Shown here: positions 43,531-44,576 of the stretch, piece by piece
Layout of the letters: every line of letters starts with the position of its first letter
Position numbering within the stretch: the stretch's first letter is position 1
Virus genome (UHGV): UHGV-0229940
Direction: 5' to 3' (one strand)
DNA from: a virus
DNA: 46,029 bases
Notes under the pieces: generated by a model
Seen by the model: the letters and a program-made list of their open reading frames with translations, nothing else
Told to the model about the DNA's origin: nothing
The model's database searches: none
Program-made: the position numbers and the translations under genes

Positions 43531-43971
43531 TTAGAAAGGTTTTCTACGTTGCTTGTTAATGTTAGCTTTCATAGCAGCTAAGTGGTTTTGCTGTTCAATC
43601 AGTCGCGAACGTTCTTGATGGCTAAGTGCCATAGTGTTCACATTCTCAATTGCTTGAGTGGCTTGCTTTAAAGCACGACCAATTTTACCAGACATTTTGC
43701 GTTTTGCAATAGTTGCTTGATGCTTAGGTTCAACCACACGATAACCAACACCCATTGAAGCAACCAGATAAATCTTCTCTTCTTTAAGAAGCTTCTCAAT
43801 AAACTTCTCAAGTCGGTTTAGACGTGTAAGTGCATAAGCCTTCATTTCATCTTCGTACTTAACAATGTCACCTTGATAAGTTGGCTTCACAATACCTAAG
43901 AAGGTATCCATCTCAGAGTGTGATACAGTGTCACCGTAACTAAACTTTGCTGCTAATGCTTTTGTATTCAT
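43531..43971 (-). CDS. hypothetical protein
   Basis: 146 aa ORF; second gene of a two-gene unit bracketed by repeat arrays. Confidence 0.6.
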   Translation of the reverse strand: MNTKALAAKFSYGDTVSHSEMDTFLGIVKPTYQGDIVKYEDEMKAYALTRLNRLEKFIEKLLKEEKIYLVASMGVGYRVVEPKHQATIAKRKMSGKIGRALKQATQAIENVNTMALSHQERSRLIEQQNHLAAMKANINKQRRKPF

Positions 43972-43973
43972 AA

Positions 43974-44576
43974 TTAAACGTTACCTTCTGAAATAACTTC
44001 TACAGAAAAACGACCAAAGCGTGGACGCCAATCACCTACACCACAAAGGTTACCAGCATTTTCCAGAACCATCAAGAGTTCCTCTTTGGTGATTTGCTCT
44101 TCATCGAACATCAAACCGAACTCTACAGACCAGTCACGGAAGATTGGACGGTAGCTCATAACTCGTGCTGTACCAATCTTAACAGACTTAGCATAGATAA
44201 AGTCTGGATTCTTAGCAAGTTCTTGTGGGTTTGCTGGACAGTTCTTGATAGTCATTGGGAAGACTACATCTGTCAGCATAATGGCTCGGTCAATTACCTT
44301 ACCAAGTTTGTTGAGTTTTGCACCAGACTTGATACAAGCCTCAATCATCTCACCGTTCATAACAAAACCTAGCTGCTCATCGTAGTAACAGGAAGTTACT
44401 AGTTGGCTTTCTGCTAAGAGCGCATAGTCTTCGTCAGTCTTTTTACGTTTACTGGACAGAGACTTGTGATATTTTGTCAGAGGGTTTAATGGGTCTGACA
44501 GCGTATCGTTATGGCTCAAGAAAGGACGAGTACCAGTGATTTTGATATTTAGCAGTTTCATAGCATTTAGCTCCAC
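43974..44576 (-). CDS. hypothetical protein
   Basis: 200 aa ORF; first gene of the two-gene unit. Confidence 0.65.

Follow-up and report, generated by a model that had tools for sequence, protein, structure and literature searches.

A probable type II VIPR locus of the SUSP1 clade in a Felix O1-like phage, with predicted guide targets in satellite elements of Escherichia coli

The window analysed, a stretch of 46 029 nucleotides, represents about half of a myovirus genome of the Felix O1-like type (Ounavirinae). A 2.2-kb region of it was matched at 60–99% identity by 279 phage records, nearly all of them from Felixounavirus, Mooglevirus or Suspvirus. The locus described here sits among replication genes (ligase, polymerase) and contains two co-oriented minus-strand ORFs, both of which were present as listed, between two intergenic regions termed IGR-A and IGR-B (table 1). 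A sequence-only reading had described a two-gene cassette bracketed by repeats of one family and equipped with its own promoter and terminator. The ORFs and the repeat modules shared by IGR-A and IGR-B bore this out, and both signals were found; the placing of the arrays outside the unit did not hold, because the promoter P1 precedes the upstream arrays, which consequently lie inside the transcription unit. P1 lies upstream of the first gene at a distance of approximately 410 nt, a stretch that includes two arrays; it was unchanged in eight phages and is annotated as a promoter in the AYO145A record. A second promoter, P2, forms the downstream border of the locus and is predicted to drive the gene for the 127-aa protein. 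According to annotated homologues and the solved SUSP1 protein, the first gene almost certainly begins with the ATG at position 44561 and encodes 195 aa; the listed GTG start is probably placed 15 nt too far upstream. The gap between the stop of this gene (vipr) and the start of the 146-aa ORF (vap1) is 3 nt.

Table 1. Features of the locus and its neighbours (positions in the window; vrRNA, putative guide-RNA gene).
Feature	Position	Strand	Description
DNA ligase gene	45007–46002	−	Upstream neighbour
P1	44973–45000	−	Strong sigma-70 promoter TTGACA-16-TATACT, consensus match 11/12; heads the locus
IGR-A	44577–45006		430 bp, between ligase gene and first gene
5′ module HP1	44904–44942	−	Conserved inverted repeat CATCACTTAAGAG...TTAAGTGATG before vrRNA-A1
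vrRNA-A1	44792–44903	−	16 YNNGG units (44903–44824), pseudoknot tail (44823–44792)
HP1-type 5′ module	44730–44790	−	With 22-nt insertion, before vrRNA-A2
vrRNA-A2	44638–44729	−	12 units (44729–44670), tail (44669–44638)
First ORF as listed	43974–44576	−	200 aa, GTG start at 44576
vipr	43974–44561	−	195 aa; RAMP fold (Cas7-like); vrRNA binding predicted from SUSP1 homologue
vap1	43531–43971	−	146-aa ORF; accessory protein with long C-terminal helical hairpin
IGR-B	42963–43530		568 bp, between second gene and gene for 127-aa protein
Terminator	43504–43519	−	Intrinsic hairpin after vap1, followed by CCTTTTT
5′ module X	43466–43503	−	Conserved, CCTTTTTAAAAGG...GGGTCTTTTAATGAGG, before vrRNA-B1
vrRNA-B1	43369–43465	−	13 units (43465–43401), tail (43400–43369)
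HP1-type 5′ module	43329–43367	−	Before vrRNA-B2
vrRNA-B2	43203–43328	−	4 units, 1-nt register slip, 14 units (43304–43235), tail (43234–43203)
5′ module X	43162–43200	−	Before vrRNA-B3
vrRNA-B3	43055–43161	−	15 units (43161–43087), tail (43086–43055)
P2	43007–43054	−	Promoter TTGACA-17-TATTTT (43035–43007) within a 19-nt inverted repeat
Genes after IGR-B		−	127-aa secreted protein, 70-aa protein, HTH regulator

IGR-A and IGR-B were found to share 16 period-5/10 units, four copies of a 123-nt module and four copies of a 55-nt module, and a 30-nt motif occurred three times against 0.00 occurrences expected by chance. Arrays with CC at period 5 were confined to these two intergenic regions within the window. 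Read on the sense (minus) strand, each module begins with a conserved 5′ element, continues with a pentamer array and ends with a 32-nt 3′ element that is likewise conserved. The pentamers follow the pattern YNNGG and are arranged in five arrays of 12–16 units each, 43–75% of the units being strictly canonical. The 5′ element was of two kinds, either the inverted repeat CATCACTTAAGAG...TTAAGTGATG (HP1), possibly with a role in processing or as a promoter, or CCTTTTTAAAAGG...GGGTCTTTTAATRAGG. In array B2 43% of the units were canonical and the code was of low complexity, with internal 15-nt repeats, and this copy may be decaying. In an alignment of six gene-carrying phages (the window and five relatives) the flanking elements were 96–100% identical, while the arrays could be aligned at 60–80% only and differed in length by multiples of 5 nt; they retained GG(T/C) every 5 nt, the consensus reading GGT/GT at this spacing, and the NN columns were hypervariable and appeared as ‘n’.

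The 32-nt tails comprised three sequence types in one shared register and were folded as an H-type pseudoknot, in which stem 1 is GUAG/CUAC, GUGG/CCAC or AAGG/CCUU and stem 2 is AAUCGGA/UCCGAUU, AGUCUCA/UGAGACU, GGUAG/CUACC or GGCAG/CUGCC. The A2 tail combines GUGG/CCAC with GGUAG/CUACC, and the B3 tail AAGG/CCUU with GGCAG/CUGCC. Across 12 distinct tails 88.6% of cells were paired, with double-sided changes at 9 of the 11 pairs. In the shuffle control the percentage paired and the covariation score were reached by 0 of 500 shuffles and the nine-pair count by 8 of 500, and slid tails gave 27–44% paired. The A1 tail contains a strand-specific G-U pair which, together with the pseudoknot covariation, points to RNA. 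We read the repeats as five putative guide-RNA genes (vrRNAs) and not as inert repeats, A1 and A2 lying upstream of the genes in the vipr 5′ leader and B1, B2 and B3 downstream of the terminator. An Rfam search at E ≤ 10 returned chance-level snoRNA and miRNA matches only. In genome records these arrays carry the labels ‘repeat_region’, ‘DR_4’ and ‘StbAB binding site’.

That neither protein carries a recognisable motif, as had been stated, was upheld by Pfam, NCBIfam and PADLOC, which gave no match for either, and by PHROGs, which gave ‘unknown function’ families only. Profile and structure searches, proposed for both proteins by the sequence-only reading, identified the first as the SUSP1 Vipr protein, a RAMP, and gave weak winged-helix matches for the second. 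With a profile built from 83 homologues, PDB entry 36pp (‘SUSP1 Vipr protein’) was the sole solved structure matched (E 4e-78), and the window protein alone was 97.5% identical to it across all 195 aa (E 7e-128). More than 500 Vipr homologues were found, mostly from phages and prophages of Proteobacteria and Actinobacteria. An AF2 model of Vipr (pLDDT 94.4) was searched with Foldseek against a PDB copy predating the release of 36pp and matched Csm3/Cas7 subunits from CRISPR complexes of types III and VII as well as Cas6 (probability 1.00, TM approximately 0.5). Thirteen of the 14 residues named in the structure preprint were present in the window Vipr (H17, K33, R39, E71, M72, K82, G87, K88, R138, C173, D177, W178 and R179 are all conserved), and the fourteenth is the same as in the SUSP1 sequence. 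The roles given for the named residues are binding of G1, G2 and Y3 and contacts with the skipped base and the non-target strand (10.64898/2026.04.26.720920, 10.64898/2026.04.26.720927).

The second gene was named vap1 according to 10.64898/2026.04.26.720920. A single-sequence search with the 146-aa protein returned near-identical Ounavirinae copies only, and a profile of four sequences then recovered 60 homologues. A vap1 homologue directly follows a vipr homologue in unrelated phages of Pseudomonas (LESphi2, 27% identity over 138 aa, E 1e-13), Gordonia (MakoManhole, 28% over 96 aa, E 3e-6) and Mycobacterium (prophage prophiBWHA-1, 27% over 112 aa, E 1e-5), the E-values being those of pairwise BLASTP within a set of six sequences; since the order recurs in three distant phages, vipr and vap1 form a conserved pair. 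In the AF2 model of Vap1 (pLDDT 83) three helices and a β-hairpin, in that order, make up the N-domain, and a long helical hairpin follows. Its fold search gave no match at E < 0.05, and the weak matches (E ≥ 0.06) were mostly to winged-helix regulators, which suggests that Vap1 binds DNA and is probably a winged-helix protein.

VIPR (Viral Interference Programmable Repeat) is described in two bioRxiv preprints of 2026, not yet peer reviewed, as a locus of vipr, an accessory gene (vap) and vrRNAs of about 100 nt, each made up of 9–16 YNNGG repeats and an invariable tail, in the SUSP1 clade a pseudoknot. Each repeat is bound by one Vipr protomer, which sequesters GGY and presents NN, and the resulting filament pairs with dsDNA in an R-loop triplex in which one target base is skipped per repeat; the outcome is transcriptional silencing, and protection is enhanced by vap1. 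A target could be identified for 20 SUSP1-clade guides; in 18 cases it was a satellite phage carried by E. coli genomes, and the skipped base fell on the wobble position. Expression of vrRNAs, co-purification with Vipr and silencing are shown for SUSP1 and P. fulva only, and the authors propose that VIPR is older than CRISPR (10.64898/2026.04.26.720920, 10.64898/2026.04.26.720927).

The array finder used here recovered the published SUSP1 layout exactly, with one vrRNA upstream and three downstream. The window shares with SUSP1 the gene order, a genomic position flanked by the ligase gene and the gene for the 127-aa protein, the YNNGG arrays, the three tail types, the P1 and P2 promoters and the targeted satellite family; besides the near-identical Vipr, Vap1 is approximately 99% identical in the sister phage SUSP2. 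The two loci differ in vrRNA number, the window having five (two upstream, three downstream) and SUSP1 four (1 + 3), and in their NN codes, which are entirely different. The window phage is a Felixounavirus whereas SUSP1 is a Suspvirus, and, unlike SUSP1, the window has one guide (B2) with a register slip and a low-complexity code.

When complete E. coli genomes were searched with the DNA of the locus, 66 of 5,426 gave a match of approximately 67 nt to the end of the A2 array and its tail. The islands around this match were about 12 kb in length and were located at wrbA/ymdF or yecD/DUF72, apart from one decayed copy next to tonB. They carried genes for a baseplate and a tape-measure protein, for a large serine recombinase and a small recombinase, and a few small genes besides. 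Satellite-bearing strains include SLK172, JML285 and FY10. Each island had one vrRNA and neither Vipr nor Vap1. On the evidence of the preprint and of the tape-measure and baseplate genes, the island was taken to be a satellite of this phage, and the satellites appear to borrow Vipr for their own solo vrRNAs.

Targets were scored as the number of NN positions matched per guide on both strands of seven satellite loci. With a 1-nt skip, guide A1 matched at 27/32 positions (84%) in the first gene of a leftward operon (L016, 11268–11222; L019, 11223–11177), B1 at 21/26 (81%) in the small recombinase gene (L016, 13530–13567) and B3 at 25/30 (83%) in the large serine recombinase gene (L019, 3833–3790), where the first ten units were perfect. 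Skips of 0, 2 or 3 nt gave scores of 16–21, which correspond to background. None of 200 unit-order shuffles reached the A1, B1 or B3 scores (shuffle means 20.3, 17.7 and 19.4, respectively, each with SD < 1), and the positive control, SUSP1 vrRNA4, scored 21/22. The targets lay on either strand, and the skipped bases of all three were at codon position 3. Mismatches of B1 and B3 were concentrated in the tail-proximal units and those of A1 were spread along the guide. No target was found for A2 or B2 in the seven satellites or in exact 10–11-unit scans of IMG/VR. A whole-guide pattern search allowing up to three mismatches in the first satellite (L014) gave no match, the sliding NN score being required. 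The satellite vrRNAs had no match in the window, nor did the window guides match the window itself.

The features of type II VIPR (SUSP1 clade) are thus found together in the window: Vipr, vap1, the arrays, the pseudoknot tail and a target match of at least 80% with the skip at the wobble position. We conclude with high confidence that the region 43055–45000 of the window, which comes from a Felix O1-like phage, is a VIPR locus of type II belonging to the SUSP1 clade. The assignment is carried by the identity and fold of Vipr, the vipr–vap1 pairing, the array and tail features and the target complementarity, and by analogy with the systems of the preprints the window locus would be expressed, assemble filaments and silence its targets. 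Following the published SUSP1 mechanism, the flanking arrays would be transcribed into vrRNAs of about 100 nt with the structure (YNNGG)n and a 3′ pseudoknot tail, and each pentamer would be bound by one Vipr protomer with GGY hidden and the NN dinucleotide exposed. The helical filament would pair with dsDNA in the reading NNxNNx..., skipping one target base per repeat, so that an R-loop triplex would form and transcription be blocked, with Vap1 as a DNA-binding accessory strengthening the effect. Most likely the phage silences, by means of this locus, a parasitic satellite element in E. coli that would otherwise exploit its infection. The predicted targets lie in a phage satellite, and the module would thus serve conflict between mobile elements; the suggestion of an anti-defence function was right only in a loose sense, the predicted targets being satellite genes and not a host defence protein.

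The cassette had been proposed to be an accessory module, which the distribution in relatives corroborated. Vipr and Vap1 were found at 92–100% identity in 118 phage records, against 297 records matching the wider region, so that presence and absence are polymorphic, and the locus is carried by about 118 of approximately 260 relatives. Sorted by the opening word of the organism name, records with the pair and with the region numbered 77 and 120 for Escherichia, 17 and 82 for Salmonella, 8 and 23 for Shigella, 3 and 11 for Citrobacter, and 0 and 29 for Erwinia. Felix O1 itself lacks both genes, and a pair universally conserved in fixed context with a replication function was not what the relatives showed. 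The cassette genes were 94–98% identical at the DNA level even across three genera, compared with about 52% for the next downstream gene. Protein identity of Vipr and Vap1 exceeded DNA identity, which indicates purifying selection, and exchange between lineages is probable.

When the relatives were compared for presence and absence of the cassette, they had no locus, orphan arrays or the full locus, with breakpoints in the repeats. Mordin and EP1 have a single promoter before the gene for the 127-aa protein and no repeats. One orphan vrRNA is present in Felix O1, GEC_vB_BS, mio, EC6 and Si3, where P1, the 5′ module, one array, a type-3 tail and P2 are kept; UAB_69 has two orphan vrRNAs, and the full locus has four to five vrRNAs. 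The deletion endpoints fall within repeat modules, and a deletion running from the first array of a complete locus to its last would be expected to produce the single-orphan layout. The direct-repeat architecture (5′ module, array, tail) renders the locus prone to deletion and shuffling, which would explain its patchy distribution. Gain and loss bounded by repeats, as the sequence-only reading had it, therefore stands as an evolutionary pattern; that the repeats are merely substrates of recombination does not, since they are predicted to be guide-RNA genes.

Among the orphans at least four different codes were present, and the orphan promoter and tail were 97–100% conserved. A scan of IMG/VR for single-orphan loci returned two isolate genomes only, EC6 and Si3, too small a number to gauge the diversity of orphans. 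Orphan number 1 of UAB_69 scored 19/22 against a satellite under the 1-nt-skip rule (shuffle maximum 17), and the guides of Felix O1, mio and EC6 and the second UAB_69 orphan had no match in the seven satellites. Solitary CRISPR repeats of phages and RNA anti-CRISPRs are guide-like RNAs encoded without cognate protein genes. The orphan vrRNAs of Felix O1-type phages and of the satellites resemble both in having no cognate protein genes; they differ in that nothing points to an inhibitory action, and they may be plain deletion remnants. It is conceivable, though rather unlikely, that they act in trans at co-infection, either borrowing the Vipr of a relative or titrating Vipr as an RNA decoy. 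Phage orphan guides are not mentioned in 10.64898/2026.04.26.720920 or 10.64898/2026.04.26.720927.

The presence or absence of the locus among relatives, the breakpoints in repeat modules and the high DNA identity of the cassette across three genera next to a poorly conserved downstream gene would also fit a cassette whose genes have an unrelated function, for example in anti-defence, and whose repeats serve as recombination substrates moving it between phages. Repeats that serve recombination need to be identical in sequence, whereas conservation within the locus is lowest (60–80%) in the arrays, which retain only GGY every 5 nt; there is also pseudoknot covariation in the tails, satellite genes are matched by the NN codes in codon register, and the product of the first gene is the protein solved as Vipr. 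Together these points make this account highly improbable. Short tandem repeats flanking a two-gene operon beside a promoter are also found in parC/parMR, and the 5-bp arrays could on that model be DNA-level iterons that bind a partition-like or replication-initiator protein and act as a centromere or origin. The position of the locus among replication genes (ligase, polymerase) and the note ‘possible binding site of StbAB’ in the KhF3 record speak for it. However, Pfam, NCBIfam and fold searches revealed no similarity of either protein to ParM, ParA, ParR, StbA, StbB or any initiator, many relatives are viable phages without the whole locus, which is thus dispensable for them, and both the covariation of the pseudoknot tails and the G-U pair of the A1 tail, which is strand-specific, argue for RNA, leaving iterons, and with them a ParMR/StbAB partition locus, barely credible.

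Period-5 triplets with 2-nt spacers also resemble the sites of TRAP; in TRAP as in VIPR, single-stranded RNA is read by an oligomeric protein that recognises a triplet recurring at intervals of about 5 nt. Two of the arrays also lie within the vipr 5′ leader. A (GGU-NN)n RNA wrapping an oligomeric protein for attenuation or for titration of a host factor, with no DNA targeting, is nevertheless scarcely to be expected here: three arrays are downstream of the terminator, the NN positions hold target-matching information with a wobble-aligned skip that a sponge would not need, and the published structures show engagement with DNA. The TRAP oligomer is moreover a closed ring, recognises (G/U)AG and acts as a cis regulator, whereas the filament of Vipr is helical and open, recognises GGY and leaves the spacers exposed for pairing with DNA. 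The two folds are unrelated. TRAP-like RNA, a G-rich R-loop origin and Chi-like GT-rich hot spots were among the early ideas, as were sigma-70 −10-like pause sites and RfaH ops-like elements; they were dropped once Vipr had been identified and the target matches found.

Among known systems close to this locus, after SUSP1, are the backbones of Class 1 CRISPR-Cas complexes (Cas7/Csm3 filaments on crRNA), which share the RAMP fold (RRM core, G-loop, thumb), the binding of one protomer per periodic guide unit and a thumb that breaks pairing periodically. In contrast to these, VIPR has no repeat-spacer array and Vipr no second RRM domain; the Vipr protomer covers 5 nt of which two pair, one target base in three is skipped, the system is encoded by a virulent phage, and its output is silencing and not cleavage. 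No array of identical repeats and unique spacers was present in 42900–45100, where vipr was the sole RAMP-fold gene seen, and neither cas1/cas2 nor other cas genes were seen near the locus, the neighbours being the genes for the ligase, the secreted 127-aa protein and the HTH regulator.

VIPR is already known as a kind of system, a recently reported form of RNA-guided DNA recognition in which the guide information resides in two variable bases per pentamer, and the present locus was flagged from its repeat architecture alone. The matches described here amount to an independent replicate of the 1-nt-skip rule, obtained with another phage and other guides against the same satellite family and with the skip at the wobble position. 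The relatives form an allelic series, from absence of the locus through one orphan guide or two to the complete locus with four to five guides, and provide a view of how the locus evolves.

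Complete vrRNA-like units, each consisting of a 5' module, a YNNGG array and a pseudoknot tail, are retained, one or two per phage, in phages without vipr (the RAMP-fold guide-binding protein gene) and its accessory gene vap1. These orphan units are flanked by the ligase gene and the gene for the 127-aa protein and carry at least four different NN codes. Neither orphan guides nor Felix is mentioned in the first VIPR preprint (10.64898/2026.04.26.720920). Both vipr and vap1 are annotated as 'hypothetical protein' in every record examined, and pieces of vrRNA arrays are labelled 'repeat_region', 'DR_4' or 'direct repeat sequence4 possible binding site of StbAB' in GenBank (MN850636, dune; NC_012749, wV8; KT184315, KhF3).

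The arrays are preceded by conserved 5' modules of two kinds, X and HP1. A perfect palindrome, CCTTTTTAAAAGG, lies in module X, as does what may be a weak promoter, TTAAAA-17-TTTAAT. HP1 is an inverted repeat with a 10-bp stem, and its copy at vrRNA-A2, a guide upstream of the genes, has a 22-nt insertion. The modules may act as promoters, terminate the vrRNA that precedes them or serve as sites of processing. In the downstream guide vrRNA-B2 (window 43305-43328 and 43235-43304), four units are followed by a one-nucleotide register slip (GGGATGCAAGG), internal 15-nt repeats (GGTTTAGTGAAGTAA) give the repeated code TT-GA-AA, and only 6 of the 14 units of the main array are canonical; vrRNA-B2 may be decaying, or slippage may have expanded it.

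Right beside the VIPR locus, between the ligase stop codon and the head promoter P1, is another site of indel polymorphism. A hydrophobic ORF of approximately 49 aa is inserted there in several relatives, SUSP1 has a different insert, and the window, dune and Felix O1 have none. At the other end of the locus, a 19-nt inverted repeat (43008-43026/43036-43054) encloses the promoter of the 127-aa gene (window 43007-43054), with the -35 box at its centre. The element is invariant throughout in eight phages of three genera; in SUSP1, Mijalis and Sf19 the gene that it drives has only approximately 52% identity. The element looks like an operator, its candidate ligand perhaps being the HTH regulator encoded at 42073-42402.

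Coordinates of 5' modules, the ORF insert, orphan vrRNA regions and satellites
Feature	Record	Position	Strand
Module X	window	43466-43503; 43162-43200	(-)
Module HP1	window	44904-44942; 44730-44790; 43329-43367	(-)
~49-aa ORF insert	wV8 (L008), Mijalis (L007), Sf19 (L009)	columns 495-672, A1 alignment of relatives' loci	
~49-aa ORF insert	UAB_69 (L021), mio (L022)		
Orphan vrRNA region	Felix O1 (L005)	17633-17914	
Orphan vrRNA region	mio (L022)	699-1131	
Orphan vrRNA region	UAB_69 (L021)	699-1258	
Orphan vrRNA region	EC6 (L025)	4212-4319	
Orphan vrRNA region	Si3 (L026)	3269-3385	
Satellite, ~12 kb	E. coli chromosome (L014)	3715-15400	
Satellite, ~12 kb	E. coli chromosome (L016)	815-14700	
Satellite, ~12 kb	E. 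coli chromosome (L019)	3547-15000	

Under the 1-nt-skip rule, orphan 1 of UAB_69 matches the E. coli satellite at 19 of 22 NN positions (e.g. L014 9262-9231; shuffle maximum 17). Besides genes for a large serine recombinase and a small recombinase, the satellite has baseplate and tape-measure genes and just one vrRNA; Vipr and Vap1 are both absent. Stem 2 of its vrRNA tail covaries (GGUAG/CUACC versus UGUCG/CGAC), and the satellite-type tail is present in 66 of 5,426 complete E. coli genomes. The vrRNA of the L014 satellite itself matches a different satellite (L019 13771-13734, 22/26). Among phage records, VIPR carriage follows the host name: the locus is found in 77 of 120 Escherichia, 17 of 82 Salmonella, 8 of 23 Shigella, 3 of 11 Citrobacter and 0 of 29 Erwinia phages, a trend in keeping with E. 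coli as the home of the targeted satellite.
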